NCBI RefSeq assembly: GCF_003018255.1
Contig: NZ_CP027440.1
Direction: 5' to 3' (one strand)
DNA: 64,000 bases
From: Escherichia coli
Lineage (GTDB): Bacteria > Pseudomonadota > Gammaproteobacteria > Enterobacterales > Enterobacteriaceae
A program made the translations under genes and the position numbers. Under the pieces are notes generated by a model. The model was not told the DNA's origin. It saw only the letters and a program-made list of their open reading frames with translations, and did not search any database. Each line of letters begins with the position of its first letter. Within the stretch, counting starts at the first letter, position 1. Shown here piece by piece: positions 1-60,942 of this stretch.

Positions 1-2241
<2,241 letters not shown>

Positions 2242-2242
<1 letters not shown>

Positions 2243-3615
2243 TGACCACGCGCCTGACTCGCTGGCTAACCACGCTGGATAACTTTGAAGCCAAAATGGC
2301 GCAGTTGCCTGCGGTACGTCGCTACGGGCGATTAACCCGCGCTACCGGGCTGGTGCTGGAAGCCACCGGATTACAATTGCCGCTCGGCGCAACCTGTGTC
2401 ATTGAGCGCCAGAACGGCAGCGAAACGCACGAAGTAGAAAGCGAAGTCGTTGGCTTTAACGGTCAACGGCTGTTTTTAATGCCGCTGGAGGAAGTCGAAG
2501 GTGTCCTGCCCGGCGCGCGTGTTTATGCCAAAAACATTTCGGCTGAAGGGCTGCAAAGCGGCAAGCAGTTGCCGCTCGGTTCGGCGTTATTAGGTCGCGT
2601 TCTGGACGGCAGCGGTAAACCGCTTGATGGCCTCCCCTCCCCCGATACGACGGAAACCGGTGCGCTGATTACCCCGCCATTTAACCCGTTGCAACGTACA
2701 CCGATTGAACATGTGCTGGACACCGGCGTGCGCCCAATCAATGCCCTGCTTACCGTCGGGCGCGGGCAGCGTATGGGGCTGTTTGCCGGGTCCGGCGTTG
2801 GTAAAAGTGTGCTGCTGGGGATGATGGCACGTTACACCCGCGCCGATGTCATTGTCGTGGGTTTGATTGGTGAACGAGGGCGCGAAGTAAAAGATTTTAT
2901 TGAGAATATCCTCGGTGCCGAAGGACGTGCACGCTCCGTGGTGATTGCCGCTCCGGCGGATGTTTCTCCGCTCCTGCGAATGCAGGGTGCCGCCTATGCC
3001 ACGCGCATTGCCGAAGATTTTCGCGATCGTGGTCAGCATGTGTTGCTGATTATGGACTCCCTCACCCGCTACGCGATGGCCCAGCGTGAAATTGCGCTGG
3101 CGATTGGCGAACCACCTGCCACTAAAGGTTATCCACCGTCGGTGTTTGCCAAATTACCGGCACTGGTCGAGCGTGCCGGAAATGGCATTAGCGGCGGCGG
3201 CTCGATTACCGCGTTTTATACCGTGCTCACCGAAGGCGATGACCAGCAGGACCCCATTGCCGACTCCGCGCGGGCAATCCTCGACGGTCACATTGTGCTG
3301 TCTCGCCGACTGGCGGAAGCCGGGCACTATCCGGCTATCGATATTGAAGCGTCGATCAGTCGCGCAATGACGGCGTTGATCAGTGAGCAACATTACGCGC
3401 GAGTGCGCACCTTCAAACAGCTGTTGTCGAGTTTTCAGCGTAACCGCGATCTGGTTAGCGTCGGCGCGTATGCCAAAGGCAGCGATCCGATGCTCGACAA
3501 AGCCATCGCCCTGTGGCCGCAGCTGGAGGGCTATTTGCAACAAGGCATTTTTGAACGCGCGGACTGGGAAGCGTCTCTCCAGGGGCTGGAGCGTATTTTC
3601 CCGACAGTATCATAA
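2242..3615 (+). CDS. fliI: Flagellum-specific ATPase FliI (457 aa)
   Basis: Walker A motif GSGVGKS and F1-ATPase-like sequence; start overlaps the fliH stop. Confidence 0.95.
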
Positions 3616-3633
3616 CCCAGGAGATAACGGCAG

Positions 3634-4077
3634 ATGACAGAACATGGCGCGCTGGCGACCCTGAAAGATCTGGCAGAAAAAGAGGTAGAGGATGCCGCGC
3701 GCCTGCTGGGTGAAATGCGTCGGGGATGTCAGCAGGCGGAAGAACAGCTCAAAATGCTGATCGATTATCAGAATGAATATCGCAATAACCTCAATAGCGA
3801 TATGAGTGCCGGGATGACCAGCAACCGCTGGATCAACTATCAGCAGTTTATCCAGACGCTGGAAAAAGCCATTACTCAGCATCGCCAGCAACTTAATCAG
3901 TGGACGCAGAAAGTAGACATTGCCCTGAACAGCTGGCGAGAAAAGAAACAACGTTTGCAGGCTTGGCAGACACTGCAGGAACGGCAATCCACGGCGGCAC
4001 TGCTTGCAGAAAACCGCCTCGATCAGAAAAAGATGGATGAGTTCGCCCAGCGCGCCGCCATGAGGAAACCTGAATGA
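3634..4077 (+). CDS. fliJ: Flagellar export chaperone FliJ (147 aa)
   Basis: Size, coiled-coil composition and operon position. Confidence 0.88.
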
Positions 4078-5201
4078 TTCGCATAGCGCCCTTGATTACC
4101 GCTGACGTTGATAACGCCACATTGCCTGGCGGCAAAGCCAGCGATGCTGCACAAGATTTTCTCGCGTTGTTGAGCGAAGCATTAGCAGGCGAGACAACAA
4201 CCGACAAAGCGGCCCCCCAGTTGCTGGTGGCAACAGATAAGCCCACGACAAAAGGCGAGCCGCTGGTCAGCGATATTGTTTCCGATGCGCAACAAGCAGA
4301 TTTACTGATCCCTGTGGATGAAACACCGCCTGTCATCAACGACAAACAATCCACATCAACATCGTTAACCACCGCTCAGACGATAACGTTGGCTGCGGCG
4401 GCTGACAACAATACGGCAAAAGACGAAAAAGCGGATGATCTGAATGAAGACGTCACCGCAAGCCTGAGCGCCCTTTTTGCGATGTTGCCGGGTTTTGACA
4501 ATACGCCCAAAGTGACTGATGCACCGTCAACCGTGTTACCGACAGAGAAACCAACGCTTTTCACAAAACTGACTTCTGCGCAACTCACTACAGCACAGCC
4601 TGATGACGCCCCCGGCACACCAGCTCAGCCATTAACACCGCTGGTAGCAGAAGCCCAGAGTAAAGCGGAAGTCATCAGCACGCCTTCGTCGGTGACCGCT
4701 GCCGCCAGCCCGCTAATCACTCCACACCAGACACAGCCACTGCCCACCGTCGCCGCGCCTGTTTTGAGTGCACCGCTGGGTTCTCACGAATGGCAACAAT
4801 CATTAAGCCAGCATATTTCGCTGTTCACCCGCCAGGGGCAACAAAGTGCAGAGTTGCGTCTGCACCCACAGGATTTAGGTGAAGTGCAAATTTCCCTCAA
4901 AGTGGATGATAACCAGGCGCAAATCCAGATGGTTTCACCGCATCAGCACGTACGCGCCGCCCTGGAAGCAGCGCTGCCGGTACTGCGTACGCAGCTGGCC
5001 GAAAGTGGCATTCAGTTAGGGCAAAGCAACATCAGTGGCGAAAGCTTTAGTGGTCAGCAGCAGGCCGCTTCCCAACAACAGCAAAGCCAACGCACAGCAA
5101 ACCATGAACCTCTGGCGGGGGAAGACGACGATACGCTTCCGGTTCCCGTCTCTTTACAAGGGCGTGTAACAGGCAACAGCGGCGTTGATATTTTCGCCTA
5201 A
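4074..5201 (+). CDS. fliK: Flagellar hook-length control protein FliK (375 aa)
   Basis: Pro/Thr/Gln-rich low-complexity protein of the expected length and position. Confidence 0.88.
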
Positions 5202-5305
5202 CGTCAGAGGTAGCACCGTAATCCGCGTCTTTTCCCCGCTTTGTTGCGCTCAAGACGCAGGATAATTAGCCGATAAGCAGTAGCGACACAGGAAGACCGC
5301 AACAC

Positions 5306-5770
5306 ATGACTGATTACGCGATAAGCAAGAAAAGCAAGCGATCGCTTTGGATCCCGATTCTGGTATTCATTACCCTCGCGGCCTGTGCCAGCGCAGGTTA
5401 CAGCTACTGGCATTCGCATCAGGTTGCCGCTGAAGACAAAGCGCAGCAACGCGTCGTGCCCTCCCCGGTCTTCTATGCGCTGGATACCTTTACGGTCAAT
5501 CTGGGCGATGCGGATCGCGTACTTTATATCGGCATAACCCTGCGACTCAAAGATGAAGCTACCCGCTCGCGGCTGAGTGAGTATTTGCCGGAAGTCCGTA
5601 GCCGTTTGCTGTTACTGTTTTCGCGTCAGGATGCTGCCGTACTGGCGACAGAAGAAGGTAAGAAAAACCTGATTGCCGAGATTAAAACCACACTTTCCAC
5701 CCCGCTTGTTGCCGGGCAACCGAAACAGGATGTCACCGACGTGCTGTATACCGCTTTTATTCTGCGATAA
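5306..5770 (+). CDS. fliL: Flagellar basal-body protein FliL (154 aa)
   Basis: N-terminal transmembrane segment; first gene of the fliL operon. Confidence 0.88.
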
Positions 5771-5774
5771 CGAC

Positions 5775-6779
5775 ATGGGCGATAGTATTCTTTCTCAAGC
5801 TGAAATTGATGCGCTGTTGAATGGTGACAGCGAAGTCAAAGACGAACCGACAGCCAGTGTTAGCGGCGAAAGTGACATTCGTCCGTACGATCCGAATACC
5901 CAACGACGGGTTGTGCGCGAACGTTTGCAGGCGCTGGAAATCATTAATGAGCGCTTTGCCCGCCATTTTCGTATGGGGCTGTTCAACCTGCTGCGCCGTA
6001 GCCCGGACATTACCGTCGGGGCCATCCGCATTCAGCCGTACCATGAATTTGCCCGCAACTTGCCGGTGCCGACCAACCTGAACCTTATCCACCTTAAACC
6101 GCTGCGCGGCACAGGGCTGGTGGTGTTCTCACCGAGTCTGGTGTTTATCGCCGTGGATAACCTGTTTGGCGGCGATGGACGCTTCCCGACCAAAGTGGAA
6201 GGTCGCGAGTTTACCCATACAGAACAGCGCGTCATCAACCGCATGTTAAAGCTGGCGCTTGAAGGCTATAGCGACGCCTGGAAGGCGATTAATCCGCTGG
6301 AAGTTGAGTACGTACGTTCGGAAATGCAGGTGAAATTTACCAATATCACCACCTCACCGAACGACATCGTGGTTAACACGCCGTTCCATGTGGAGATTGG
6401 CAACCTGACCGGCGAATTTAATATCTGTCTGCCATTCAGCATGATCGAGCCGCTACGGGAATTGTTGGTTAACCCGCCGCTGGAAAACTCGCGTAATGAA
6501 GATCAGAACTGGCGCGATAACCTGGTGCGCCAGGTGCAGCATTCACAGCTGGAGCTGGTCGCCAACTTTGCCGATATATCGCTACGCCTGTCGCAGATTT
6601 TAAAACTGAAACCCGGTGACGTCCTGCCGATAGAAAAACCCGACCGCATCATCGCCCATGTTGACGGTGTCCCGGTGCTGACCAGTCAGTACGGCACCCT
6701 CAACGGTCAGTATGCGTTACGGATAGAACATTTGATTAACCCGATTTTAAATTCTCTGAACGAGGAACAGCCCAAATGA
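5775..6779 (+). CDS. fliM: Flagellar motor switch protein FliM (334 aa)
   Basis: ORF 5673..6779; start placed at MGDSILSQAEIDALL, which gives 334 aa. Confidence 0.9.
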   Translation: MGDSILSQAEIDALLNGDSEVKDEPTASVSGESDIRPYDPNTQRRVVRERLQALEIINERFARHFRMGLFNLLRRSPDITVGAIRIQPYHEFARNLPVPTNLNLIHLKPLRGTGLVVFSPSLVFIAVDNLFGGDGRFPTKVEGREFTHTEQRVINRMLKLALEGYSDAWKAINPLEVEYVRSEMQVKFTNITTSPNDIVVNTPFHVEIGNLTGEFNICLPFSMIEPLRELLVNPPLENSRNEDQNWRDNLVRQVQHSQLELVANFADISLRLSQILKLKPGDVLPIEKPDRIIAHVDGVPVLTSQYGTLNGQYALRIEHLINPILNSLNEEQPK

Positions 6780-7189
6780 GTGACATGAATAATCCGGCCG
6801 ATGACAACAACGGCGCAATGGACGATCTGTGGGCTGAAGCGTTGAGCGAACAAAAATCAACCAGCGGCAAAAGCGCTGCCGACGCGGTGTTCCAGCAATT
6901 TGGCGGTGGTGATGTCAGCGGAACGTTGCAGGATATCGACCTGATTATGGATATTCCGGTCAAGCTGACCGTCGAGCTGGGCCGCACACGAATGACCATC
7001 AAAGAGTTATTGCGTCTGACGCAAGGGTCCGTCGTGGCGCTGGACGGCCTGGCGGGCGAACCGCTGGATATTCTGATCAACGGTTATTTAATTGCTCAGG
7101 GCGAAGTTGTCGTAGTCGCTGATAAATATGGCGTGCGGATCACCGATATCATTACTCCGTCTGAGCGAATGCGTCGCCTGAGCCGTTAG
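6776..7189 (+). CDS. fliN: Flagellar motor switch protein FliN (137 aa)
   Basis: Size and sequence; overlaps fliM stop. Confidence 0.9.
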   Translation: MSDMNNPADDNNGAMDDLWAEALSEQKSTSGKSAADAVFQQFGGGDVSGTLQDIDLIMDIPVKLTVELGRTRMTIKELLRLTQGSVVALDGLAGEPLDILINGYLIAQGEVVVVADKYGVRITDIITPSERMRRLSR

Positions 7190-7557
7190 TGATGAATAAC
7201 CATGCTACTGTGCAATCTTCCGCGCCGGTTTCTACTGCGCCACTGCTGCAGGTGAGCGGCGCACTCATCGCCATTATTGCCCTGATCCTCGCTGCTGCCT
7301 GGCTGGTAAAACGGCTGGGATTTGCCCCGAAACGCACTGGCGTTAACGGTCTGAAAATTAGCGCCAGTGCTTCGCTGGGCGCGCGTGAACGGGTCGTGGT
7401 GGTCGATGTGGAAGATGCACGGCTGGTGCTCGGCGTTACCGCAGGGCAAATCAATCTGCTGCATAAACTTCCCCCTTCAGCACCAACGGAAGAGATACCG
7501 CAGACCGATTTTCAGTCGGTCATGAAAAATTTGCTTAAGCGTAGCGGGAGATCCTGA
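7189..7557 (+). CDS. fliO: Flagellar export protein FliO
   Basis: Small single-TM protein between fliN and fliP. Confidence 0.82.
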
Positions 7558-8628
7558 TGCGTCGTTTGTTGTCTGTCGCACCTGTCCTTCTCTGGCTGGT
7601 TACGCCCCTCGCCTTCGCGCAACTGCCGGGTATCACCAGCCAGCCGCTGCCTGGCGGTGGACAAAGCTGGTCGCTCCCGGTGCAGACGCTGGTGTTCATT
7701 ACCTCGTTGACGTTTATCCCGGCAATTTTACTGATGATGACCAGTTTCACCCGCATCATCATTGTTTTTGGTTTATTGCGTAACGCACTGGGAACACCCT
7801 CCGCGCCACCTAACCAGGTATTGCTGGGGCTGGCACTGTTTTTGACCTTTTTTATTATGTCGCCGGTGATCGACAAAATTTATGTCGATGCGTACCAGCC
7901 ATTTAGCGAAGAGAAAATATCAATGCAGGAGGCGCTGGAAAAAGGGGCGCAGCCGCTGCGTGAGTTTATGCTGCGTCAGACCCGTGAGGCAGATTTAGGG
8001 GTCCATGCGCTGTTGTCTTGACTGTTACGTCTTCGCGCAACTTTCAACCTGCTGCTGACGCTGTTTGCATTTTTTTTTTTTTTTTTTTTTTTTTCATTTT
8101 TTTTTGTTTATTGCGTAACGCACTGGAACACCCTCCGCGCCACCTAACCAGGTATTGCTGGGGCTGGCACTGTTTTTGACCTTTTTTATTATGTCGCCGG
8201 TGATCGACAAAATTTATGTCGATGCGTACCAGCCATTTAGCGAAGAGAAAATATCAATGCAGGAGGCGCTGGAAAAAGGGGCGCAGCCGCTGCGTGAGTT
8301 TATGCTGCGTCAGACCCGTGAGGCAGATTTAGGGTTGTTTGCCAGACTGGCGAATACCGGCCCGTTGCAGGGACCTGAAGCCGTGCCGATGCGCATTTTG
8401 CTCCCGGCTTACGTGACCAGCGAGTTGAAAACCGCATTTCAGATAGGCTTCACGATTTTCATTCCTTTTTTGATTATCGACCTGGTGATTGCCAGCGTGT
8501 TGATGGCATTGGGGATGATGATGGTTCCCCCAGCCACCATTGCTCTGCCCTTTAAACTGATGCTGTTTGTACTGGTGGATGGCTGGCAATTGCTGGTCGG
8601 TTCGCTGGCGCAGAGCTTTTACAGCTAG
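7557..8628 (+). pseudogene. fliP: fliP (flagellar export apparatus) interrupted: N-terminal part 7557..8000 runs into the insert and stops at 8021; the C-terminal remainder resumes only after a duplicated segment (8106..8628)
   Basis: Intact FliP is ~245 aa. Here the frame reads through ...QTREADLG then VHALLS-stop; ...[18 protein letters not shown]... reappears downstream after the duplicate. Confidence 0.8.
8001..8105. other. Insert inside fliP: 69 bp of unrelated sequence, a T25 homopolymer (8070..8094), 'ca', then T9; followed by a second copy of fliP nt ~7771..8000
   Basis: Direct reading: 7771..8000 and 8107..8336 are identical except one missing G (cactggg to cactgg) near the 5' edge of copy 2. 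Confidence 0.85.
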
Positions 8629-8637
8629 AGAGGCAAA

Positions 8638-8907
8638 ATGACACCTGAATCGGTCATGATGATGGGGACTGAAGCGATGAAAGTCGCGCTGGCACTGGCT
8701 GCCCCACTGTTGCTGGTGGCGCTGGTCACGGGTCTTATCATCAGTATTTTGCAGGCCGCCACGCAGATCAACGAAATGACGCTGTCGTTTATTCCAAAAA
8801 TCATCGCCGTATTTATCGCCATTATTATTGCCGGACCGTGGATGCTCAATCTGTTGCTGGATTACGTCCGCACCTTGTTCACTAACCTGCCGTATATCAT
8901 CGGGTAG
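8638..8907 (+). CDS. fliQ: Flagellar export apparatus protein FliQ (89 aa)
   Basis: Size, hydrophobicity and position. Confidence 0.9.
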
Positions 8908-8915
8908 GCCGTACA

Positions 8916-9701
8916 ATGATGCAGGTAACAAGCGATCAATGGCTTTCCTGGTTAAGCCTGTACTTCTGGCCGTTACTGCGCGTGCTGGCGCTCATTTCTA
9001 CCGCACCAATTCTGAGCGAACGCAGCGTGCCGAAACGGGTAAAACTGGGTCTGGCAATGATGATCACGTTCGCTATTGCCCCATCATTACCTGCCAACGA
9101 TGTTCCTGTTTTTTCGTTCTTTGCTCTGTGGCTGGCCGTGCAGCAGATCCTGATCGGCATTGCGCTTGGTTTTACCATGCAATTTGCCTTTGCCGCGGTG
9201 CGAACCGCTGGTGAAATTATCGGTCTGCAAATGGGGCTGTCATTTGCGACGTTTGTCGATCCGGCCAGCCATCTCAATATGCCCGTTCTAGCGCGTATCA
9301 TGGATATGCTGGCGTTATTGCTGTTCCTGACATTTAACGGTCATTTATGGTTGATTTCACTGCTAGTCGATACCTTTCACACCCTGCCAATTGGTGGCGA
9401 ACCGTTGAACAGCAATGCGTTTCTGGCACTCACCAAAGCAGGGAGTTTGATTTTCCTTAACGGGCTGATGCTGGCATTACCGCTCATTACTCTGCTGCTG
9501 ACCCTGAATCTGGCATTAGGTTTACTGAATCGTATGGCCCCGCAATTATCCATTTTTGTTATTGGATTTCCATTAACTCTGACTGTCGGTATCTCTTTAA
9601 TGGCGGCATTAATGCCGTTAATTGCGCCTTTTTGCGAACATTTATTCAGTGAGATGTTTAATTTGCTGGCTGATATTATTAGTGAATTGCCATTAATATA
9701 A
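8916..9701 (+). CDS. fliR: Flagellar export apparatus protein FliR (261 aa)
   Basis: Polytopic membrane protein; last gene of the operon. Confidence 0.9.
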
Positions 9702-9990
9702 TTCCGTAACGTTTATCATGTTATCCTAAGGATTATCCGAAAAATAATACCTACGAACATCTTCCAGGATACTCCTGCGGCGAAATATTTGTTTTAAGCT
9801 CACTCACATATCGCAACATTTACTTTACTTTAAGACAATTCCAGGCAAATTATACAACACTTTACGGGATAGTAAGTCCGCCTGAAAAATCGCGAGAGTG
9901 GCGCATTAGGTGACCCATGTTGTTCCGTTTAGTCATGATGAAATATTCAGGTAAGGGGAATTATCGTTACGCATTGAGTGAGGGTATGCC

Positions 9991-10614
9991 ATGTCAACGA
10001 TTATTATGGATTTATGTAGTTACACCCGACTAGGTTTAACCGGGTATCTGTTGAGTAGAGGGGTTAAAAAAAGAGAAATCAACGACATTGAAACCGTTGA
10101 TGACCTTGCCATAGCTTGTGATTCACAGCGCCCTTCAGTGGTGTTTATTAATGAGGACTGTTTCATCCACGATGCTTCTAACAGTCAGCGCATCAAGCAC
10201 ATCATTAATCAACATCCCAATACGTTATTTATCGTTTTTATGGCAATTGCCAATGTTCATTTTGATGAATATCTATTGGTCAGAAAAAATTTATTGATCA
10301 GTTCTAAATCGATTAAACCGGAATCTCTCGATGATATCCTTGGCGATATTCTGAAAAAAGAGACAACGATAACCTCGTTTTTAAATATGCCGACGTTATC
10401 ATTGAGCCGAACCGAATCGAGTATGTTGCGAATGTGGATGGCAGGTCAGGGAACCATTCAAATCTCCGACCAAATGAATATCAAAGCCAAGACCGTTTCA
10501 TCGCATAAAGGTAATATTAAACGTAAGATCAAAACGCATAATAAACAGGTTATCTACCATGTCGTCCGACTGACGGATAATGTGACTAATGGTATTTTTG
10601 TCAACATGCGCTAA
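9991..10614 (+). CDS. rcsA: Capsule synthesis regulator RcsA (LuxR-type, 207 aa)
   Basis: Sequence I recognise as RcsA; AT-rich upstream region; position after fliR. Confidence 0.9.
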
Positions 10615-10620
10615 CACATT

Positions 10621-10646
10621 CTGACTGGTGGTTTCCCACCAGTCAG
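10621..10646. terminator. Perfect 11-bp stem hairpin between convergent rcsA and dsrB; probable bidirectional terminator
   Basis: ctgactggtgg-tttc-ccaccagtcag read directly; no strong T-tract, so moderate. Confidence 0.4.
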
Positions 10647-10657
10647 GCTGAATTAGA

Positions 10658-10936
<279 letters not shown>

Positions 10937-11008
10937 CTATACTTAAGAGATGCCAGGCGGACTTAACGACTGGCGGCAACAACAGAGTAACGGTTGCGAG
11001 GAAAGATG

Positions 11009-11236
11009 ATGAAAACCGCAAAAGAGTACAGCGATACCGCAAAACGTGAGGTCAGCGTCGATGTCGATGCCCTGCTGGCGGCGATCAATGAAATTAGCGA
11101 AAGCGAAGTTCATCGCAGCCAGAACGATTCTGAACACGTTAGTGTCGATGGACGTGAATATCATACATGGCGTGAATTGGCGGATGCCTTCGAACTGGAT
11201 ATTCATGACTTCAGCGTCTCTGAAGTGAATCGTTGA
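11009..11236 (+). CDS. yodD: Stress-induced protein YodD (75 aa)
   Basis: ORF 10994..11236; start set to MKTAKEY... to give 75 aa. Confidence 0.75.
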   Translation: MKTAKEYSDTAKREVSVDVDALLAAINEISESEVHRSQNDSEHVSVDGREYHTWRELADAFELDIHDFSVSEVNR

Positions 11237-11250
11237 ATGCACAATAAAAA

Positions 11251-11337
11251 AAATCCCGACCCTGAGGGGGTCGGGATGAAACTTGCTTAAGCAAGAAGCA
11301 CTTAAAAAATTCGTTACACCAGGAAATCTGATGTGTT
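11251..11337 (-). ncRNA. dsrA: DsrA small regulatory RNA (Hfq-dependent; regulates rpoS and hns)
   Basis: The minus strand reads AACACATCAGATTTCCTGGTGTAACGAATTTTTTAAGTGCTTCTTGCTTAAGCAAGTTTCATCCCGACCCCCTCAGGGTCGGGATTT, ending in a terminator hairpin plus U-tract; matches DsrA as I remember it. Confidence 0.85.
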
Positions 11338-11516
11338 CATCACCTTATCCGCAATTTTTTTCGCTGACAAGAAAATATTCGTGATATGAATGATTAACGC
11401 TACTTATGAATAGAAATGTGACGCGCGTCACCCCTTGGTGGCTCTGGCGTCAACGGGATCGCTCCCAAAAAAATCATCTTTGATAATTTGTGCTGTTTTG
11501 AGAATCATCCTGGTAA

Positions 11517-14041
<2,525 letters not shown>

Positions 14042-14211
14042 CCTGACGACTCCCAACCTGCTTTTTTATGATTCTGGCATAACCCGGCGATAACGTACCG
14101 CAAAACAGCGATAATTTTATAATGGTGGCATGATAAGACGCGACTATCATTCATTGCAGGCATTGGCACACCAGGCCGGATGTGATCCGGCCTGGTGTTA
14201 ATGATACCCTT

Positions 14212-14394
14212 TCAAACTTCTTCCGCAGAACGACTCCCCTCCCCCGGAACAAGATCGGTTTCATGAAAAGCTTCCCGCTTGACCCCGTAACCGTCATACC
14301 AACGACACTCAACCATACCGCTGGAGTATCCAGTGACAATCATCCGCGGGCCGCCCTCTTTAACCGTAACTTCCTCACTAACCATAAAGCTCAT
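14212..14394 (-). CDS. yodC: YodC (60 aa)
   Basis: Small conserved ORF in the expected position. Confidence 0.65.
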   Translation of the reverse strand: MSFMVSEEVTVKEGGPRMIVTGYSSGMVECRWYDGYGVKREAFHETDLVPGEGSRSAEEV

Positions 14395-14472
14395 ACTCGC
14401 CTCCTTTTTTCGAGTGAAACTTGTTCACCTTAGTTGAAGATGGCGAATTTTGCATAATAGCCAGTGCGAGTA

Positions 14473-15390
14473 TTAATGTGCCTGACCGCGCATTTTCGCT
14501 ACTGCTTTCACTCCCAGCACCACGATGCCGCCGATGATAAAACCAAGAATCAGATTTAAAACAGTCGGTAATATCATCGCCACCACTGCACTTTGCTGCC
14601 CGGCGAAATGTTCAATGGCGTGATGCAGCGGCGCAATACCATGTACCACAATCCCGCCGCCGACGAGGAACATCGCCAGCGTGCCGACAATCGATAACGC
14701 CTTCATCAACCAGGGCGCAATGATCAATAACCCTTTACCTAATGCCTGCATCAGCGCGCTGGATTTTTCCGCCAACCAATACCCCAGGTCATCAATCTTA
14801 ACGATAACCCCTACCAGACCGTAGACGCCCACGGTCACTACCAGCGCGATGCCTGAAAGCACCAGCACCTGATTAAGCAACGGCGCTTCTGCCACAATCC
14901 CCAGCGTGATGGCGACGATTTCCGCAGACAAAATAAAATCGGTACGAATCGCCCCTTTAATTTTGTCCTTTTCAAACTTCAGCGGATCCTGCGCCGCCAG
15001 CTTCTCCAGACGCTGCTGGCTCTGCGCTGGATCTTCTTTATGTTTACGCGCCTCCAGCATATGCAGCACTTTCTCTACCCCTTCAAAGCAGAGAAACGCG
15101 CCACCAATCATCAACAGTGGCGTAATCGCCCACGGGATAAACGCACTGATGATCAGCGCCAGCGGCACCAGAATCACTTTATTGATCAGCGATCCTTTCG
15201 CCACGCCCCAGACCACGGGAAGTTCCCGGTTGGCCCGCACGCCCGAAACTTGTTGCGCATTGAGCGATAAATCATCCCCTAATACACCGGCGGTTTTCTT
15301 CGCCGCCAGTTTGCCCATCACGGAGATATCGTCCAGCAGTGTGGCGATATCATCGAGCAACGTCAGTAAACTACTCCCGGCCAAAAGCAT
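14473..15390 (-). CDS. yedI: Inner-membrane protein YedI (DUF808, 305 aa)
   Basis: Size, hydrophobic profile and position. Confidence 0.85.
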
Positions 15391-15562
15391 TCCCTCTCAT
15401 TTTTATTGTTGAAGGGTGTAAGTATGAAGCAAAAACGGCAGCTCTGATACTTGCTTCACAGGTCAACATTTATTTAACAATCAAGTGCAATTATATCTCT
15501 CGCCAGCAGAATGATTTTCACGTTTACTATGAACCACCTTTTTATTTCCGCCGTGAGGGATT

Positions 15563-16483
15563 ATGCGTTTCCGCCAGTTGTTACCGCTTTTTGGCGCGCT
15601 GTTTGCGTTGTATATCATTTGGGGCTCAACCTATTTTGTCATTCGGATTGGCGTGGAAAGCTGGCCTCCGTTAATGATGGCGGGCGTTCGATTCCTGGCA
15701 GCCGGTATTTTATTGCTGGCATTTTTGCTACTGCGCGGACACAAACTTCCCCCGCTACGTCCGCTGCTCAATGCCGCGCTGATTGGCCTGTTATTGCTGG
15801 CTGTCGGTAATGGCATGGTGACGGTTGCCGAACATCAAAATGTTCCTTCCGGCATCGCCGCCGTAGTGGTTGCAACCGTGCCCCTCTTTACCCTGTGCTT
15901 CAGCCGCCTGTTTGGCATTAAAACGCGCAAACTGGAATGGGTGGGTATCGCCATTGGGCTTGCCGGAATCATCATGCTCAATAGCGGTGGAAATTTAAGC
16001 GGCAATCCGTGGGGCGCGATTCTGATTTTAATCGGCTCGATTAGCTGGGCGTTTGGCTCGGTTTATGGCTCGCGCATTACCTTACCTGTAGGGATGATGG
16101 CGGGTGCGATTGAGATGCTGGCGGCAGGCGTGGTGTTAATGATTGCGTCGATGATTGCGGGTGAAAAACTGACGGCGCTCCCTTCCCTTTCAGGCTTCCT
16201 TGCGGTCGGCTATCTGGCGCTGTTTGGTTCGATTATCGCCATTAACGCTTATATGTATTTAATCCGCAACGTCAGTCCGGCTCTCGCCACCAGCTACGCC
16301 TACGTTAACCCGGTGGTCGCGGTCTTACTGGGTACGGGACTGGGTGGCGAAACGCTGTCGAAGATTGAATGGCTGGCGCTCGGCGTGATTGTCTTCGCGG
16401 TGGTACTGGTCACGTTGGGAAAATATCTCTTCCCGGCAAAACCCGTAGTTGCGCCAGTTATTCAGGACGCATCAAGCGAGTAA
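15563..16483 (+). CDS. yedA: EamA/DMT-family transporter YedA (306 aa)
   Basis: Ten-TM-like hydrophobic protein of the expected size. Confidence 0.85.
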   Translation: MRFRQLLPLFGALFALYIIWGSTYFVIRIGVESWPPLMMAGVRFLAAGILLLAFLLLRGHKLPPLRPLLNAALIGLLLLAVGNGMVTVAEHQNVPSGIAAVVVATVPLFTLCFSRLFGIKTRKLEWVGIAIGLAGIIMLNSGGNLSGNPWGAILILIGSISWAFGSVYGSRITLPVGMMAGAIEMLAAGVVLMIASMIAGEKLTALPSLSGFLAVGYLALFGSIIAINAYMYLIRNVSPALATSYAYVNPVVAVLLGTGLGGETLSKIEWLALGVIVFAVVLVTLGKYLFPAKPVVAPVIQDASSE

Positions 16484-16942
16484 ATGAATCCCCTGCGTGT
16501 CGATCTGCGCGCTGGCACCTTCGCCGCAGATCCACTCTTCCAGACGCTCGGTAAGCGCCGCATCCGTAAGCTTCTCGCGCCCACGTAACGCACACTCCCA
16601 GACAATCAGTACGCGCCAGCCGAGTTCCTGCAAGCGACTGATATCGCGGCGATCGCGTTCAACATTTTTACCTATCTTCTCCAGCCAGAACTCGGTTCGA
16701 GTCGCAGGCACTTTAAACAGATAGCAGTGATGATGATGCCAGAAGCAGCCGTGGGTAAATATCACGCAGCGATATTCATCAACGACAAAATCCGGGCGTC
16801 CGGGCAGACTGGCGTCCTGAACGCGAAACGCCAGGCCCTGCCCGGTTAACAAACTGGCGAGGCGCTTCTCAATCGCCGTATTACGCGTGGCAATTGCGCG
16901 CATATTTTTGCTGCGGGTGGCCTTATCGTGAACGTCGACCAT
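16472..16942 (-). CDS. vsr: Very-short-patch repair endonuclease Vsr (156 aa)
   Basis: ORF 16472..17104; start set to [16 protein letters not shown]...; overlaps the 3' end of dcm as expected. Confidence 0.9.
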
Positions 16943-18341
16943 GTTGTGCCTCTTGCTGACGCAACGCCACCGCCTGTTTGATTTTTGGCTCAAGCAGTTT
17001 TGCCACCGCGGCAAAGACCGGCACGACCACCGAGTTACCGAACTGGCGATAGGCCTGAGTGTCCGAAACCGGAATGCGGAATTTCGCTTCTCCCGGCGCT
17101 TCAAAACCCATTAAGCGCGCGCATTCCCGAGGCGTTAACCGACGTGGACGATGTTGCTGATTCAGCGGATCGTCAAAGTCTTTCTCACCCGTGGCCATAT
17201 CCCAGCCGCGATCGATTAGAATTTCCGCGCCATCTTTGTAATAACGCGCAGACAGCGTACGCGTGACGCTTTGCGGATTGTTCGGATAAACCATTCCATA
17301 ACCGAAGCCGTTACCGCGCGCCTGATGTTTTTTCGCATAACGATAGAGGTACTTCCACAGCACCGACGTCAGGATATATTTCGCCTCGACCATCGGGTCC
17401 AGCAGCTGCGCCAGCGTCACTCGCTGTGCAGGGAAACATTTGCTGATATCACGCAGAGTAAAATCGGCTTTCAGATTCAGATCGCGACGAAAACCCACCA
17501 GCACGATGCGTTCACGGTGCTGCGGCAGAAAATGTTTGCCGTCGATGATTTTCGGATCGTCTGGCCCGTTATCTTCTGCATCAGCCACGTCATAGCCCAG
17601 TTCGTCCAGCGTCTGCATGATGATGCGGAACGTTTTACCCTGGTCGTGACTTTTCAGGTTTTTGACGTTTTCGAGCACAAACATCGCCGGACGACGCGCG
17701 TCGATAATGCGCACCACATCAAAGAACAGCGTGCCCTGGGTATCGCAGGCAAAACCGTGCGCCCGCCCGAGCGAGTTCTTTTTCGATACGCCAGCCAGCG
17801 AAAATGGCTGACAAGGAAAACCCGCCAGTAATACATCGTGTTCAGGAATGTGTTGACGAATATGTTCCGCCGCCGCCTCATCACTCACGCCTTCTTTATG
17901 GCTGAGGGTGATGTCGCGGATATCTTCATTAAAATGATGCGTCGCCGGGTCGCAATAATGATTGGCTTTATAAGTGCGTACCGCATGTTTGTTCCATTCG
18001 CTGGTAAAGACGCACTGTCCGCCAATCGATTCAAAACCGCGACGGATGCCGCCAATTCCGGCAAATAGATCGATAAAGCGAAACGCATAATGCGGATGAT
18101 GTGCCGGTGGTTTGGGTAACAACGTTTGCAGATGGGCGAACTCTTTCTCACTTAAACGGTGCCATGCCGAGTCATTCGCCAGCGCACGTTTTAAAATTGC
18201 CGCGCTCCAGTGATTCTCACCCACACCATTAAGCTGCGCCACCAGCGTTTTAACATCATAAATTTGCAGCAGTTTCTCCAGCATTGCCTGAACGACATTC
18301 CCGGTGCTGTATGAATCGGTTACTGATATATTTTCCTGCAT
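16923..18341 (-). CDS. dcm: DNA cytosine-5 methyltransferase Dcm (472 aa)
   Basis: m5C-MTase motifs (FAGIGG, ENV) and the classic dcm-vsr overlap. Confidence 0.92.
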
Positions 18342-18407
18342 AGATTTAACCGGCCATCTGAGATGGCCGACAGGTTAACATAATTACTGCCGTTTAGGGC
18401 CACGCGC

Positions 18408-19103
18408 TCAGCCCGCGGGTGAAAACGCATCTATCACCTTGTGATCGACACCTTCATTCTCCCCCGCCAGTTCGGCACTGAGCTTCGCCATAAACTCGAC
18501 TAAAAATTGCGCGTTGTGCTGCGCCAGCTGCTTGCCTCTTGCGGTTTGCATGGTTTGCGGTAGCTTCAGCAACTTAGTCTGGAAATGATCCAGCGCGTAG
18601 CGTTTATCATCAAGCGGGCGATGCTGTGCGAACGGATCTTCGCCATCAAACAGCGCCACGCCCAATGCCCCTGAAACAGCAAACACGCGCGCCAGGCCAA
18701 TCGCCCCCAGGGCTTCCAGCCGATCCGCATCCTGGACGATTTTAGCTTCCGTTGTTAAGGGGGCGATTTGCGCGCTGAAACTGTGCGCGGCAATGGCATG
18801 ACAAACGGCCTCGATTTTCTCCGCCGGAAATTGCACGAACTCTTCACGGAGCAGGCGACGCGTCTCTTCTGCCGCCAGGATTGAAGAATGCTGCCGTTGC
18901 GGATGATCTTTCGCCAGGCTCACAATATCGTGAAAATAACAGGCGGATAAAATCACCAGCATATCGACATCGTCATCTGCCGCCAGCTTCTGTGCCGTAG
19001 CCCAGACGCGGCGAAAATGACACACGTCATGGGCCGCGTCCTGGTGCTGATGATGGTTTTTCAACCAGTTTTCGAACTGTGCCTGCCAGTGTTGTAAGTC
19101 CAT
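18408..19103 (-). CDS. yedJ: HD-domain phosphohydrolase YedJ (231 aa)
   Basis: ORF 18408..19130; internal Met start gives the expected 231 aa. Confidence 0.8.
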
Positions 19104-19142
19104 ACGCGCTCCGTTGCCAAAGAGTCGCAACCTTAGCAGTTT

Positions 19143-19526
19143 TTATTCATAGCGTCTGCTACGTGCGGGACGAGGTCGGGTGTACCAGGCAATGCTGCCT
19201 AACAATGCCCCGACCAGAGCCATAAATAAAAATCCGACCAGTGCCCCTAACCACTTTCCCGCGGTAGAGCCTAAATCGCTTTCAAATCCCGACACCGGGG
19301 CATCAGGGATCCGGCTCATCACCCAGATGTAACGCGCCATTGCCCAGACGAAATAGCCACACCATGTATAGAAAGCCCACAAAGCCAATTTGCCGCCAGG
19401 GCTGCGAGAGAGTCTCTCTTCCATCTTTGTCGAACCGTATTCCATTTTGAGATAACCCGGAAAATTCAGACTTAGTACTATTATGTGATAAAAGTCACAT
19501 TTTTCCACATTGGATGAGCCAGTCAA
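19143..19526 (-). CDS. yedR: Inner-membrane protein YedR (start uncertain)
   Basis: Small hydrophobic ORF in the expected position. Confidence 0.6.
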   Translation of the reverse strand: MTGSSNVEKCDFYHIIVLSLNFPGYLKMEYGSTKMEERLSRSPGGKLALWAFYTWCGYFVWAMARYIWVMSRIPDAPVSGFESDLGSTAGKWLGALVGFLFMALVGALLGSIAWYTRPRPARSRRYE

Positions 19527-19737
19527 GACTCAATCATTTTTTGAACAAATAGATAAATTTTGCGCAACGGCGGTGAATACAGGAAAATTCGATTTGAACG
19601 ATGTTATTTATCTTTGATTTCGGCTTTATTAATTCACTCAATCAATATATTGGCACTGATTACAATTATACCTTTTTATTTTTCTGTGTCATCATGCCTC
19701 CGTTATTAGCCTTTTATCGTCTTGTTTATATTTTTTT

Positions 19738-19762
19738 GGCCGGCATGATGCCGGCTTTTTTT
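19738..19762. terminator. GC hairpin ggccggcat/atgccggcc flanked by A/T runs on both sides (bidirectional intrinsic terminator signature) in the yedR-yedS intergenic region
   Basis: Read directly; no transcribed unit assigned. Confidence 0.4.
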
Positions 19763-20068
19763 ATGCCTTCATTAATGTGCGCGAGATCACACCAGCCGTT
19801 TAGCACACAATCATTGATACTCCCTATCTTTTCGATCAACTCATAACATATTGATATACATCCATAATGTTCGTGAATATTTATATTCAGAATTCATAGC
19901 CACGAATTATATTAAATAGATTAGAAACATTTTGAAATCTTTTAAATACATTTGTTACATGTAATCTTTAAAATAAAATGAACTTCATAGAATAGTATCC
20001 AAATGTGCTTTTTTTGGATAACAGCACTTATTGATATATTCATGAAGATTATAATCACAAGGGAATAC

Positions 20069-20157
20069 ATAATGAAAAGAAAAGTTCTGGCAATGCTGGT
20101 CCCGGCGTTATTAGTTGCTGGCGCAGCAAATGCGGCTGAAATTTATAATAAAAATGG
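20069..20157 (+). pseudogene. yedS: 5' fragment of porin gene yedS (signal peptide + AEIYNKNG), truncated by the prophage
   Basis: [29 protein letters not shown] is a typical OmpC-family leader and mature start; the frame collapses right after. Confidence 0.75.
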
Positions 20158-41394: not shown

Positions 41395-42419
41395 TGGGAA
41401 AGAGTAAGAAGAACCGCGCTGCGGCGACGAAACAGATCCAGCTTAAAAGTCAAACTACAGCCGAAGCATTCAGCTTCGGCGATCCCGTTCCTGTTCTGGA
41501 CCGCCGAGAATTACTGGACTATGTGGAATGCGTACAGATGGACCGTTGGTATGAGCCGCCCGTCAGCTTTGACGGACTGGCGCGCACCTTCCGCGCTGCA
41601 GTGCATCACAGTTCCCCGATTGCAGTAAAGTGCAACATTCTGACCAGTACCTACATCCCTCACCCGCTGCTCAGCCAGCAGGCTTTTTCACGTTTTGTGC
41701 AGGACTATCTGGTATTTGGTAACGCCTACCTGGAGAAACGCACGAACCGATTCGGTGAAGTTATCGCCCTTGAGCCTGCGCTGGCAAAATACACCCGACG
41801 CGGGTTAGACCTGGATACCTACTGGTTTGTGCAATACGGCATGACTACACAGCCGTATCAGTTCACGAAAGGCAGCATTTTTCACCTGATGGAACCGGAT
41901 ATCAACCAGGAGATCTACGGCCTGCCCGGTTATCTTTCTGCCATTCCGTCAGCCCTGCTCAACGAGTCCGCCACGCTGTTCCGCCGGAAGTATTACATTA
42001 ACGGTAGTCATGCAGGCTTCATCATGTACATGACCGATGCCGCGCAGAACCAGGAGGATGTGAACAACCTCCGCAATGCGATGAAAAGCGCCAAAGGCCC
42101 TGGCAACTTCCGCAATCTGTTTATGTACTCGCCTAACGGCAAAAAGGACGGACTTCAGATTATCCCGTTGTCAGAAGTCGCAGCGAAGGATGAGTTTCTG
42201 AATATCAAAAATGTTAGTCGCGATGACATGATGGCAGCACACCGCGTGCCGCCACAGATGATGGGGATAATGCCAAATAATGTCGGGGGGTTTGGGGATG
42301 TGGAAAAAGCGAGTTTAGTGTTTGTGAGGAACGAATTAATACCCTTACAGAAAAGGATGCAGGAATTAAATAAATGGCTTGAAGATAATATATTACAATT
42401 CAAACCATATAAATTTTAA
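41391..42419 (+). CDS. Q: Portal protein Q (342 aa)
   Basis: Size and order; 3' end faces cos. Confidence 0.9.
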   Translation: MMGKSKKNRAAATKQIQLKSQTTAEAFSFGDPVPVLDRRELLDYVECVQMDRWYEPPVSFDGLARTFRAAVHHSSPIAVKCNILTSTYIPHPLLSQQAFSRFVQDYLVFGNAYLEKRTNRFGEVIALEPALAKYTRRGLDLDTYWFVQYGMTTQPYQFTKGSIFHLMEPDINQEIYGLPGYLSAIPSALLNESATLFRRKYYINGSHAGFIMYMTDAAQNQEDVNNLRNAMKSAKGPGNFRNLFMYSPNGKKDGLQIIPLSEVAAKDEFLNIKNVSRDDMMAAHRVPPQMMGIMPNNVGGFGDVEKASLVFVRNELIPLQKRMQELNKWLEDNILQFKPYKF

Positions 42420-42460
42420 CGAAAAATCAGCCTTGGCGTTCATAACGTTAGGGCTGTTCA

Positions 42461-44428
<1,968 letters not shown>

Positions 44429-44458
44429 GTATTTTGCCTATTTTAGGTGATAGCGCGC

Positions 44459-44481
44459 GCTCGTATCCCCGCCACGCCTGC
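44459..44481. other. Probable cos site (cohesive-end sequence)
   Basis: The minus strand reads GGCGTGGCGGGGATACGAG, resembling the P2/186 19-nt cohesive end (GGCG(A/T)GGCGGGGAAAGCA...) as I recall it. Confidence 0.5.
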
Positions 44482-44520
44482 CCGCTTTATGTAGTGGTTT
44501 TCATGCACCTGCATGATCTA

Positions 44521-44547
44521 CGCAAAAGCCCGCCAGTTCTGGCGGGC
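44521..44547 (-). terminator. Rho-independent terminator ending the tum/DinI-like operon
   Basis: 9-bp GC stem gcccgccag/ctggcgggc with a 2-nt loop, followed on the minus strand by TTTTG. Confidence 0.75.
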
Positions 44548-44682
44548 CTTAGCAAAAACGATCCTCAAACGATCATGCGATCTCATGCGGCATAGACATG
44601 CACTACAGAGCTAACGCCTCGCAAGGGCTCGTTGTTCAACCTTGCTGACGCCAGAAACAAGTTCAGACGCCAGCAACGTTTC

Positions 44683-44916
44683 TTAATGCAGCCAGCTGTC
44701 GTCTTCCCACACCTTTTGCATAATTTTCATCACTTGCTTCCTTTCTTCGTCCAGTTGCAGTCCTGTCAGTTCCACACCGTTAGAGCTACCTTTACGGATA
44801 CGAATTACCGTTTTGGGATACAGGGGGCGCAGATTGCGGTAAAGCTCGGATTCAAGGGCGTCCAGGGTAGACTGGCTAATCTTCTGCTCTTTATCGATCA
44901 TTATTTCAATGCGCAT
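44683..44916 (-). CDS. DinI-family protein (78 aa), resembling the C-terminal part of a 186 Tum-type SOS antirepressor
   Basis: ORF 44683..44988; start set to MRIEIMIDKEQ..., which parallels the DinI N-terminus (MRIEVTIAK...). Confidence 0.7.
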   Translation of the reverse strand: MRIEIMIDKEQKISQSTLDALESELYRNLRPLYPKTVIRIRKGSSNGVELTGLQLDEERKQVMKIMQKVWEDDSWLH

Positions 44917-44926
44917 AAAAGTCACC

Positions 44927-45115
44927 TCAGCTGATGACATCCATTGAGCGGTTGTATTCGTGGGTTCTGATTTTTGCCATGAGTTCATCTGTCAGTTCAG
45001 AAACCCACTGCAGAGCCAGCCCCTTCTCTTCATCACTACACTCACTAGCCGCTACAAGCTTAAGAAAAAAATCAATGCGCTGGAGCTTCAAAGACTCCAA
45101 AAAATAGTCCTGCAT
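44927..45115 (-). CDS. Small protein (62 aa), first gene of the LexA-boxed operon; possibly the N-terminal part of a Tum-like antirepressor
   Basis: ORF 44927..45217; start set to MQDYFLESL...; stop lies ~10 nt before the DinI-like start. Confidence 0.5.
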   Translation of the reverse strand: MQDYFLESLKLQRIDFFLKLVAASECSDEEKGLALQWVSELTDELMAKIRTHEYNRSMDVIS

Positions 45116-45156
45116 CTTTCCTCCTATGACACCACACGCAATACTGTATGTATAAC

Positions 45157-45176
45157 CACTGTTTATATTTACAGTA
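45157..45176. promoter_or_regulatory. LexA (SOS) box CACTGTTTATATTTACAGTA
   Basis: Perfect CTGT-N8-ACAG with AT-rich spacer, ~40 bp upstream of the small ORF; a second partial TACTGTATGT half-site is adjacent. Confidence 0.75.
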
Positions 45177-45268
45177 TATAATAATCTTACTGATGTAAAA
45201 CGTTTTTTTACATTCATCAGCCTGATATGCCTGGTATTATTAAGAGCACGAATTGTTAACCCGCGTAA

Positions 45269-47710
45269 TTAATACAGGTTCCGCCACTGATCATCTTCCT
45301 GCAAACGCTGGTTCCGATAGAAGATACGCAGGCCTGCTCCTGACGGAATACTGCCTCCGCGAAGGAGTAAATCGACCTCTTTCTCGCTGCCATCAAATCC
45401 TCTGGACTTCAGCTCATACACGAGCTGCAGTCGCTGATGGTCTGTAATTCGCTGTTTGTAGTCTTTACGCCGTTTCGGTTTCACCAGGCGTAACCTTGCA
45501 GCCAGTTCCCGGCGCTCTTTTTTGCTCATACTGTGCAGGTAATCGTGCAACTCCTTGTCATCCATGCGGGTAATGTCCGTTCTGGTATCCCCATCAGCTG
45601 ATTTGTCTTTCCCTTGTTGGTTCAAATTTTCAGCAAGGGGACAGTTATTGCCACGAGTCCAAGGGGCGCAAGCGCCCTGGTCGGCTGCCGCCTCCTGAAC
45701 GTCAACGGCCTTACGAACCATTTTCCACTTCACTGCATGAGTGCAGATCTTGCCCTCTGCAATGGGTGACCAGATGCCATAAATACGAATACCGTGATCA
45801 CCATAGGCGGTCGGCTCTTCGTTGATTTCATAAGCGGTTCTGATCAAGTGATATTTGCGGGGAACCAGTACGCCGCCCTGCTTCATAATGTAGGTGGCAA
45901 AACAGCCAGCATCAGCAGCAGCCAGAATGGCATCAAGGCGCGGGTTATCCAGTACCGACGCACCTGCTTTTTTGTCACCCTGTTGCCTTGCCGCCTGACC
46001 AGCCAGCAATCGCAGTTCACGGTAAGCCTGACGCCCCGGAATGCCAAAGAAGCGGAATTGCTGAACACGATGCAGAGACGCCCAGGCATTAACGTATTCA
46101 GCATTATCACGCAGGGATTTACCCGTTTCCTTGCTGATCTCGCCAGCCAGACCACGCCCGTCAATGTTCTTACTGATGTATTTCGCGATGTAGCTTGTTG
46201 GCGTACCTTTGCGCGGGTTTATCAGCTCAGACTTAAAGCGTGGCCCCGTGTTATTACCCAGCTCCTCGCGGTCTTCACGAATGGCAAACTTACGCAGCAA
46301 AGCAGTAATGGCGCGGCGATCTTTTTTGCGCATGAAACACAACAGGTGCCAGTGAACTGTGCCGTCATGATGCGGCTCAGCCACCCGCACGCCATACCAG
46401 CGCAACCCGGTTTTGTGCATAGCCTTACGAAATGCAGCAAACATGCCGACCAGATAATCGCTGCTTTGTCTTACCGTCGCGTTTGTCCAGGTCGGGTTTG
46501 GTCTGCCGTTATTGAGCGTGGAATGGAAACGCGACGGACAGGTGATGGTGTAGAAAACGGCACAGTCACTGCGCATTTCCGCGATAAGCTCCAGACCTTT
46601 AACACAGGCCATCATCTCATTGCGGCGATGCGCCGGGTTGCTGCTGCTGGCCTTTACCACATCTTCCATATCCAGCGTGTCGCCGTTTTCGTTCACCAGT
46701 TCATGAGAACGGAAAAACTCCAGCGACTTACGGCGCTGCTCACGTTTATGCATCACGGCTTCATAGCTGACATAGGGAGATGCTTTTTTGCTGACCAGGC
46801 AGACAGCACGCAACTGCTCTTCCCGCCATTCGCAGCGCATCTTCCATAATTTCCGATACCACCAGTCGGCACACAACATACGCGCCAGCGAACCCGGAAT
46901 GAGTTCATAGGGCACGGGTTTGCGACGCTTTCTTTTCCGACGAAGTTGCTCAAACGCAGGCGGGATAACATCCAGTCGCAGGGTTTCCGCTGCCACCTTT
47001 TCCCATGTCTTGCGGATTTCTTCTGGCTTAACATCATCGGTGGCGTACAAATCACCACAAGCGGCATCAAGGCACATGCTCATATGCGCAGCTACCAGGG
47101 TGGACAGGCGTTTCACCTGATCCTGACTCATTTCAGGCAGGATCAGCAGGCCGTCCAGCCCTTCATGGCTCGCCATAAAGCGAAAAGAAGTGGATAGCTG
47201 ACTGTCGCGTACATGCTCCAGCCGTTCCAGACATGGCTTAATCGTCTCACGCAAATAGCGAGAATAAGCCTTTGGCCTGCCCAGGCTGCTGAAGTATTCA
47301 ATACGTTGCATCAGCGGCTTGCTGATATGGGAAGGCTGGGCGTTAACGTCCGCCAGAATGACCATGTCCGGATTAAAACGCTGCTGCTCATGCGCCAGCT
47401 TTGCCCGGCTAATGAGCTTATCCTGCTCCATTTCGCGTTGGACAGGATCACGGGATTCATTAAAGAAATAACGCTCCCAGACCTGATCACTCAGTGCCTC
47501 GCGGCGCAGTTGTTCCTGCTCGTTATCGGCAGCGTACAGAGTGATCAGGTTTGAAAGCGCAGAAACCGGCGCAACTTCCGCCGGGTCCAGATAAGGGTTA
47601 ATGGCTTTCTTAGGTAAATTCCACGAATAACCCCCGGCAGAATTCTCAATGCTACCGGAAGTTACACTGACAAATGGATCGGCAAGACGGCCTGTGCTGA
47701 TCTCTGTCAC
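45269..47710 (-). CDS. A: Replication initiation protein (P2 gpA / 186 RepA family rolling-circle initiator, 813 aa)
   Basis: Size, position and paired catalytic tyrosines (...YIAKYISKN...). Confidence 0.88.
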
Positions 47711-48717
47711 TCACAGACTCCTGCATATACACTGCTGCACACCGCTTTATCATTCATGCCTGCCAGCAGGTCAAACTGCATACCGCCCCGAGTTGTTAAG
47801 GCCCAGTCCCGATAAGTTTCAATGCCATAAGCATCAACAGTTATGACTTCGATCCGTTTTTCATCACGGCGCGGATCATGCGTGGATGGAAAGAACGTTG
47901 AATTGCCACGTCTTGAACATTCCGCAACCAGTCTTTCCCACTCAGCCACTCGGCGGATTTCTTCTGGCCAGCGTTGGAAAATCTCAGCAAGTTCTGACTT
48001 GCGAGCATGAATACATGGCATACAACCGACACGACTGCATCCCTGCATATAAAGGGGGTTAGGCTTAATGCCATGACGTTTGGCAATAGCAAACACATCC
48101 TCATGCAGCCAATTAAGGATCGGACGATAAACATGCAGGCCCAGAGTATTGTCTGCATCGTCCTCCCACTCAGGCAACAATGCACGTTCCGGTGATTCCT
48201 GCCCCCGGACTCCTTGCCAGCTGATTACCTCATCGTATTCATCCAGAGCCGGATCGATTACCTGTGTACGTATTGGTTCATGTTTTAGTTCAAAAGTGCA
48301 GAAACGAGCTTTTGTTGAAGGGAAGCGACCTTTCCACATGCACAAATCAAGAAACGGAACGCCGGTTGGTTTAAGGATTTCCAGTGCCCGGTAAATACGT
48401 TCCTCAGCCTCATCTGTCGACATACCACATTCCTCAACGAGAGAAATGGGCCACTTTTCCGCAATGAATTTACGTTTCCCTTCTATCTGGCGTGTGAAAT
48501 CCGCTTTGACGCGAATAATCTTGCCCAGCTTTGATTCCAGATAATCCAGATATTCTATTGTCTGTGGATGTTCATGACCCGTATCGGCAAATACAGAAAT
48601 ATGCGGAACATCGTTTTCAATGGCTCTTAACCATTGAGCGAGACTATCTTTGCCACCAGAAGTAGTGATGATGTTAATGGTGCTTGAAGCAAAGCAACGC
48701 GGATCGATAGCATTCAT
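47707..48717 (-). CDS. PP-loop ATP pyrophosphatase, PAPS-reductase-like (336 aa)
   Basis: PP-loop motif TTSGGKDS near the N-terminus; Cys-rich C-terminal part; translationally coupled to dam upstream and A downstream. Confidence 0.75.
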
Positions 48718-49562: not shown

Positions 49563-49861
49563 ACAGCACCTCCTGCAATAACATATCCTAAAGCTTCTAA
49601 TGGGGTTAATGAGCGAATTGATAGCATCACCCATTGTTCTGAAACTGCCATGACGTCATTAACCGGAAGCACATGAGAGATAACCGCGGCCCATTCCCTA
49701 CCCGTAAATACGCCATGCTTCCATTCGCAAAGAGAAAGAACATCACCAACTTTATAGCCACGATCGTCTTTACGAAGTTCAGCCGTCTTTTGACCTGCAA
49801 CCACAGCGTTGAAATACTTAGGTGCAATTTTTAATTGATGGATACGCACAGCCCCTGTCAT
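49559..49861 (-). CDS. ASCH-like small protein (~100 aa)
   Basis: ORF 49559..49921 with start set to [11 protein letters not shown]...; fold assignment is from memory of similar phage proteins only. Confidence 0.5.
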
Positions 49862-54630: not shown

Positions 54631-54721
54631 GTTGGCATTGTCCCGTAATCGCCACTCCTTATCACTAACCTAACTTATTGATTGTCTTGCAACTCATTGT
54701 TATTTCTAACCCATTTACATA

Positions 54722-59931: not shown

Positions 59932-60942
<1,011 letters not shown>

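Follow-up and report, generated by a model that had tools for sequence, protein, structure and literature searches.

Introduction

Counterparts of the structure described here, a partial repeat inside the fliP gene of an Escherichia coli genome record, are found among sequence artefacts and among genuine mutations. An un-merged overlap between contig ends leaves one clean copy and a second copy that decays toward its free end; its removal gives the exact reference structure, the junk finds no match, and the join occurs in one assembly only. The fliP locus shares each of these properties. However, un-merged contig-end joins usually show Ns or fail validation, whereas the sequence at fliP is continuous.

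Sanger-type reads have poor early bases and may carry a dye-terminator blob that is read as consecutive Ts, typically at approximately read position 70–105. The start of a Sanger read thereby contains bad calls with indels, then a homopolymer within the first ~100 bases and then abruptly perfect sequence, and the fliP locus follows the same progression, although its call of 25 consecutive thymines (T25) is long for a blob. Corruption of base calls by dye blobs close to the read start has been documented for Sanger reads (PMC10643650). A chunk-edge artefact resembles the fliP case in its duplicated overlap, its poor consensus at the segment edge and its round coordinate (8000|8001), but the DNA around fliP has no similar defect at other round coordinates.

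A genuine intragenic tandem duplication also produces a head-to-tail, gene-internal repeat that breaks the reading frame. Such a biological duplication, however, leaves both copies equally accurate and separated by a short junction at most, whereas one end of the fliP repeat is ~30% wrong. Here, we compare the fliP locus with these systems. All coordinates refer to the window, by which we mean the whole 64-kb stretch of DNA that was analysed.

Results

Structure of the fliP locus in the record

The fliO-fliP-fliQ-fliR genes of E. coli occupy approximately 7200–9000 of the window. The fliP gene starts at 7557 and reads normally through ...READLG to position 8000. Past this position, its frame runs into a TGA codon at 8019–8021, and the resulting ORF (7557..8021) encodes a 154-aa product. 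Position 8000 is followed by a 69-nt filler, T25, CA and T9, in this order, after which fliP sequence appears for a second time. The normal reading to 8000, the in-frame stop that ends at 8021 and the T25-CA-T9 tract after 69 nt had all been described in an earlier note on this DNA, and each is present where that note placed it. The features of the locus are listed below.

7557..8000, + strand: clean 5' part of fliP, codons 1–148 (...READLG), and right end of the proposed first consensus piece (ORF call; window 1–8000 gap-free versus E. coli E04)
7680..8000, + strand: 321-nt stretch that is present twice; this is copy 1, the correct one (anchored alignment of 8001–8140 versus 7620–7806; exact repeat)
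8001..8069, + strand: filler, a garbled copy of fliP 7680–7750 that reads as low-quality sequence (~70% identity, many 1-nt indels)
8070..8105, + strand: T25-CA-T9 (T25 at 8070–8094, CA at 8095–8096, T9 at 8097–8105), a seemingly spurious T-run (repeat search, anchored alignment)
8106..8334, + strand: copy 2 of fliP 7771–8000, with one G missing at ~8124 and then 210 nt equal to copy 1 (same lineage-specific alleles in both)
8335..8628, + strand: remaining fliP, codons 149–245; an intact 738-nt gene results when it is joined straight to 8000 (245-aa translation)

Positions 7791–8000 and 8125–8334 form a direct repeat of 210 nt with 100% identity, which is the sole direct repeat of at least 40 nt within the window; a match of this extent is far above what chance would produce. 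The repeat extends further to the left, where 7759–7791 matches 8094–8126 with two G→T changes, and copy 2 lacks one G (GGG→GG) at ~8124. The earlier note had recognized both the repeat and the missing G but had set the left limit at 7771, short of the 7759 that the match reaches. It had also held that neither copy alone encodes an intact FliP, and this is the case. Apart from T25 and T9, the window has no homopolymer of 9 nt or more. The T25-CA-T9 tract stands in place of ~10 nt of real sequence (wild type ...TCATCATTGTTTTTGG...), and T9 originates from two G→T miscalls within TTGTTTTTGG. The insert of 94–105 nt contains no ORF, and a repeat search of the locus reported no inverted repeat flanking it. 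The rest of the window is clean, with no Ns and no frameshift-type indels, and no other junction like 8000/8001 was found in the 64 kb.

The filler is derived from fliP

What is the origin of the 69-nt filler, which was earlier regarded as unrelated sequence? The filler (8001–8069) aligns over its whole length, and in collinear order, with fliP 7680–7750, with ~70% identity and many single-base indels, and this fliP segment is precisely the stretch expected just before copy 2. In the first scoring scheme, the filler and fliP give a local score of 24.5; shuffled sequences score 14.0 ± 2.0, with 0 of 2000 reaching 24.5, and the 1,242 other window slices reach 24.0 at most. The ranking of slices against the filler was then based on six scoring schemes applied to the predicted fliP slice and 5,028 control slices (5,029 total). 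The predicted fliP slice ranks first under three error-tolerant schemes (e.g. 31 versus a maximum of 27) and ties for first under a fourth. The match is not significant with strict, high-identity schemes and its significance is limited to gap-tolerant scoring, as expected for a noisy copy. Judged from these alignments, the extra 334 nt (8001–8334) is a second copy of 7680–8000.

Other origins of the filler were considered. A copy of the extreme fliP start, suggested by a 14/15-nt match between 7610–7624 and 8028–8042, was rejected given that the collinear, full-length alignment to 7680–7750 scores higher. An adaptor, vector or FRT scar was likewise rejected, as the sequences compared (FRT scar, pUC polylinker, and Illumina, 454, Ion, ONT and SMRTbell adaptors) gave background-level scores of 4–16 versus 31 for the fliP slice. 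Complete E. coli genomes, one-genome-per-species genomes, metagenome contigs and viral contigs contain no match to the filler, and its matches in plasmids and phages are chance matches of 21–31 nt (E = 0.5). The foreign origin envisaged in the earlier note found no source in the window, in E. coli genomes or in plasmids beyond such chance matches.

Copy 2 has errors only at its start

The accuracy of copy 2 changes along its length. In successive 20-nt bins from 8001, the numbers of matches are 15, 17, 13, 8, 7, 19 and 20, after which 210 nt are perfect. The first 125 nt of copy 2 contain ~16 mismatches and 12 indel events (~28 in total), including a 21-nt T insertion, and the next 210 nt contain no errors. 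If errors were distributed uniformly, the probability that all 28 events would fall in the first 125 of 335 nt is (125/335)^28, or ~1e-12 by our own arithmetic. Counted from 8001, the profile consists of poor calls with indels at 1–69, the T-run at 70–105, nearly correct sequence at 106–124 and perfect sequence from 125 onward. The wild-type bases that are mismatched in copy 2 include G, A, C and T and are not specific to adenine. A bad free end that abruptly turns perfect looks like the untrimmed, low-quality end of a read or of a consensus.

Deletion of 334 nt restores the wild type

Alignment to E. coli E04 reveals no gaps in window 1–8000, and the segments 1–8000 and 8094–20157 overlap on E04 such that L001 20360–20601 is used twice. 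When 8001–8334 is removed, the window becomes gap-free versus the wild-type relatives L002, L005, L007 and L008 (8,366 nt with 0 gaps versus L005), and the exact collinear wild type is restored. The repaired fliP is 738 nt in length, in frame and encodes 245 aa; its product is exactly the commonest E. coli FliP allele, which occurs in 70,422 blocks of the gene collection. Both copies share lineage-specific alleles: at 7904 and 7991, 24/29 and 22/29 relatives, respectively, differ from the window allele. This agreement places the origin of copy 2 in the genome that also supplied copy 1 and excludes a contaminant or a transferred fragment.

The structure is absent from all other assemblies examined

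The region was matched by 5,185 of 5,426 complete E. coli genomes, and the length was wild type in all 5,183 genomes that covered the query (~967 bp for the 1,301-bp query). The copy/filler/copy structure of fliP occurs in no other assembly examined, including the 5,185 complete E. coli genomes and every fetched locus. The fliO-fliP spacing is wild type in 38/38 fetched loci covering the gene, and the loci fetched by an identical FliO, FliR, FliK or FliP all contain a wild-type, 245-aa fliP. The closest relatives found, which are ~99.5% identical, all have the wild-type fliP spacing. The junction-specific protein product is not on record in the exact-protein index of the gene collection, and the junction was not reproduced in three contig collections.

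Simpler fliP breaks were observed during this comparison. A 145-aa C-terminal FliP fragment (MSPVIDK...) is present in 728 blocks of the gene collection. Six assemblies with this fragment (L024–L029, corresponding to window 7596–7848) retain wild-type fliP spacing, and in five of the six, fliP is split by single-base indels, mostly a gain or loss of one T near window-equivalent 7838–7848, in or beside short T-runs. The remaining assembly has no indel and presumably contains a nonsense change. These splits are either real recurrent pseudogenes or homopolymer sequencing errors.

Prophage, retron and porin gene in the window

A block of ~34.5 kb (window 20158–54712), located between drpB and a porin gene, is absent from E. 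coli E04. The block encodes P2-like phage proteins, including tail sheath, tape measure, late control D, terminase, portal and integrase (52882–54081). A similar prophage at the drpB/porin site was found in only two complete E. coli genomes, with ~97.8% identity.

The reverse transcriptase (RT) gene of the window (42461–44401, - strand) encodes a retron Ec67-family RT-Toprim (NF038237, 703.9 bits with a cut-off of 450; PADLOC RT-Toprim_I-C, 8.7e-217), which we take to be a defence retron that copies its own msd. This RT-Toprim (retron type I-C) lies in an accessory hotspot of the P2-like prophage and adjoins the P2 portal and terminase genes, and the presence of an Ec67-type retron in a P2-like prophage hotspot is a known arrangement. 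The RT ORF is listed with ~60 extra N-terminal residues, and its true start is thus probably downstream. The msr/msd should lie at ~44200–44520, where Rfam gave no model match; it gave nothing relevant in 42000–46000. Retron msDNA or cDNA was rejected as the source of the filler: the best match is 17/19 nt at 44635 (E ~1), outside the expected msd, and this position falls in the 3' region of a neighbouring gene, past a terminator-like hairpin. By this comparison, the RT is unrelated to the filler.

A gene pair at window 47707–49634 (- strand) lies beside a P2 A-like replication gene. One member is a Dam-family adenine methyltransferase (TIGR00571, 319 bits), and its partner is a PAPS-reductase-like protein with weak similarity to SspD, BrxP and DndC; the pair may be a phage-borne DNA-modification or anti-restriction module. 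The porin gene that follows the prophage (ORF 54752–55699; region 54713–56100) differs from E04 far more strongly than the flanking sequence does and contains numerous indel clusters that look in-frame; across the aligned block 54713–62485, identity to E04 averages 94%. Divergence of this kind in porins is typical of surface-exposed loops under diversifying selection.

Discussion

The fliP break is very probably an assembly or consensus artefact, that is, a property of the record rather than of the organism, and fliP is most likely intact in the real genome. The earlier note had named a read or assembly artefact among its options, and this is the option that the evidence supports. The extra copy comes from the same locus, its accuracy decays toward its free end, and the break disappears on removal of 334 nt. 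A lone gross error in an otherwise clean window is somewhat unexpected for an artefact, and the filler-fliP similarity of only ~70% also counts against it.

As to the form of the artefact, we consider it highly likely, on the basis of the sequence, that an overlap between two consensus pieces was left un-merged and that the second piece had an untrimmed, low-quality start. The two pieces would overlap by ~321 bp (fliP 7680–8000) and would have been abutted instead of merged. The first piece would end cleanly at 8000. The second piece would begin at 8001 with ~70 nt of bad calls, continue through a spurious T-run and ~20 nearly correct bases, and become perfect from 8125. Its garbled start is probably the reason why the overlap went unnoticed.

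We infer the origin of the garbled end. As sub-mechanism, we favour a contig headed by one dideoxy (Sanger-type) read whose 5' start had been left untrimmed. Alternatively, the garbled end could have been a chunk edge in chunk-wise consensus or in polishing/merging software. The junction between clean and garbled sequence lies exactly at the round window coordinate 8000|8001, which may be a coincidence of ~1 in 1,000. This position would fit a chunk-edge origin, provided that windows are cut on round record coordinates.

Among the alternatives to an artefact, a real lesion survives best, although it is quite unlikely. In this reading, replication template switching or slippage, accompanied by error-prone synthesis and the addition of an untemplated T-tract at the junction, duplicated 321 bp in tandem inside fliP, which inactivated the gene and rendered the strain non-flagellate. 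The structure does stand in the given sequence without Ns, the quality is good across the rest of the window, simple fliP frameshifts exist in other assemblies, and loss of motility via fli mutations is common in E. coli. Against a real lesion, all ~28 errors of copy 2 fall within its first 125 nt, and the 210 nt that follow have none. The simple template switch proposed in the earlier note would leave two clean copies, and we know of no bacterial duplication mechanism that yields ~25–30% error over 70 nt with scattered 1-nt indels. Furthermore, the structure is unique among >5,000 genomes, and its junction-specific product is absent from the gene collection. The full form of this reading, in which a real 321-bp duplication arose in a non-flagellate E. 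coli via extremely error-prone template-switching synthesis plus an untemplated T25, is slightly less probable still. If true, such error-prone T25 synthesis would be mutagenic junction synthesis of a kind undescribed in enterobacteria.

It is highly improbable that a small foreign DNA, such as a circle integrated by a single crossover or a mobile element, carried the filler and the poly-T into fliP and duplicated the target. The superficial layout of target copy, insert and target copy is what this explanation predicts, and the earlier note had named a small circular molecule as one option on such grounds. That proposal does not hold, given that the filler is degraded, adjacent fliP sequence that is found nowhere else: it is derived from fliP itself, and searches of plasmids, phages, E. 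coli genomes, metagenome contigs and viral contigs yielded no counterpart. A Campbell-type integration is further contradicted by the corruption of one repeat end, and a circle of ~336 bp would have no means of maintenance or selection. Transposable elements duplicate 2–14 bp of their target, and the 'target duplication' of 242–321 bp at fliP is far beyond this range; the 94–105 nt also lack an ORF and a reported flanking inverted repeat.

Equally little speaks for an RT-mediated event, be it the insertion of a poly-A-tailed cDNA or retron product into fliP or the synthesis of a DGR-like mutagenic copy. The window does contain an RT gene, as the earlier note had pointed out in its suggestion of a poly-A cDNA, and poly-T would be the complement of poly-A. 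That suggestion fails on the identity of the enzyme, a retron Ec67-family RT-Toprim, and on the filler, which has no significant match to the retron region (44150–44900). DGR retrohoming fares no better because the mismatches affect G, A, C and T rather than adenine specifically, 12 indel events are present and the RT is of the retron type. A laboratory construct in fliP, namely an allelic exchange or FLP excision scar or a vector/adaptor remnant, is scarcely credible: the insert is approximately the size of a recombineering scar (about 85–105 nt), but it lacks similarity to the scar, polylinker and adaptor sequences compared, and scars do not duplicate 240–320 bp of target.

What does the fliP break mean for this E. 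coli strain? In the record, 334 extra bases break up an essential flagellar gene, leaving two pseudogene fragments, and the record as given would wrongly predict a non-motile strain. As a matter of data hygiene, it should be corrected by deleting 8001–8334 or flagged at this position. If the structure were real, its graded, highly error-prone junction with T25 would be an unusual mutational signature. With an assembly or consensus artefact as the preferred explanation, the break has no biological import, since the organism most probably has a normal fliP.
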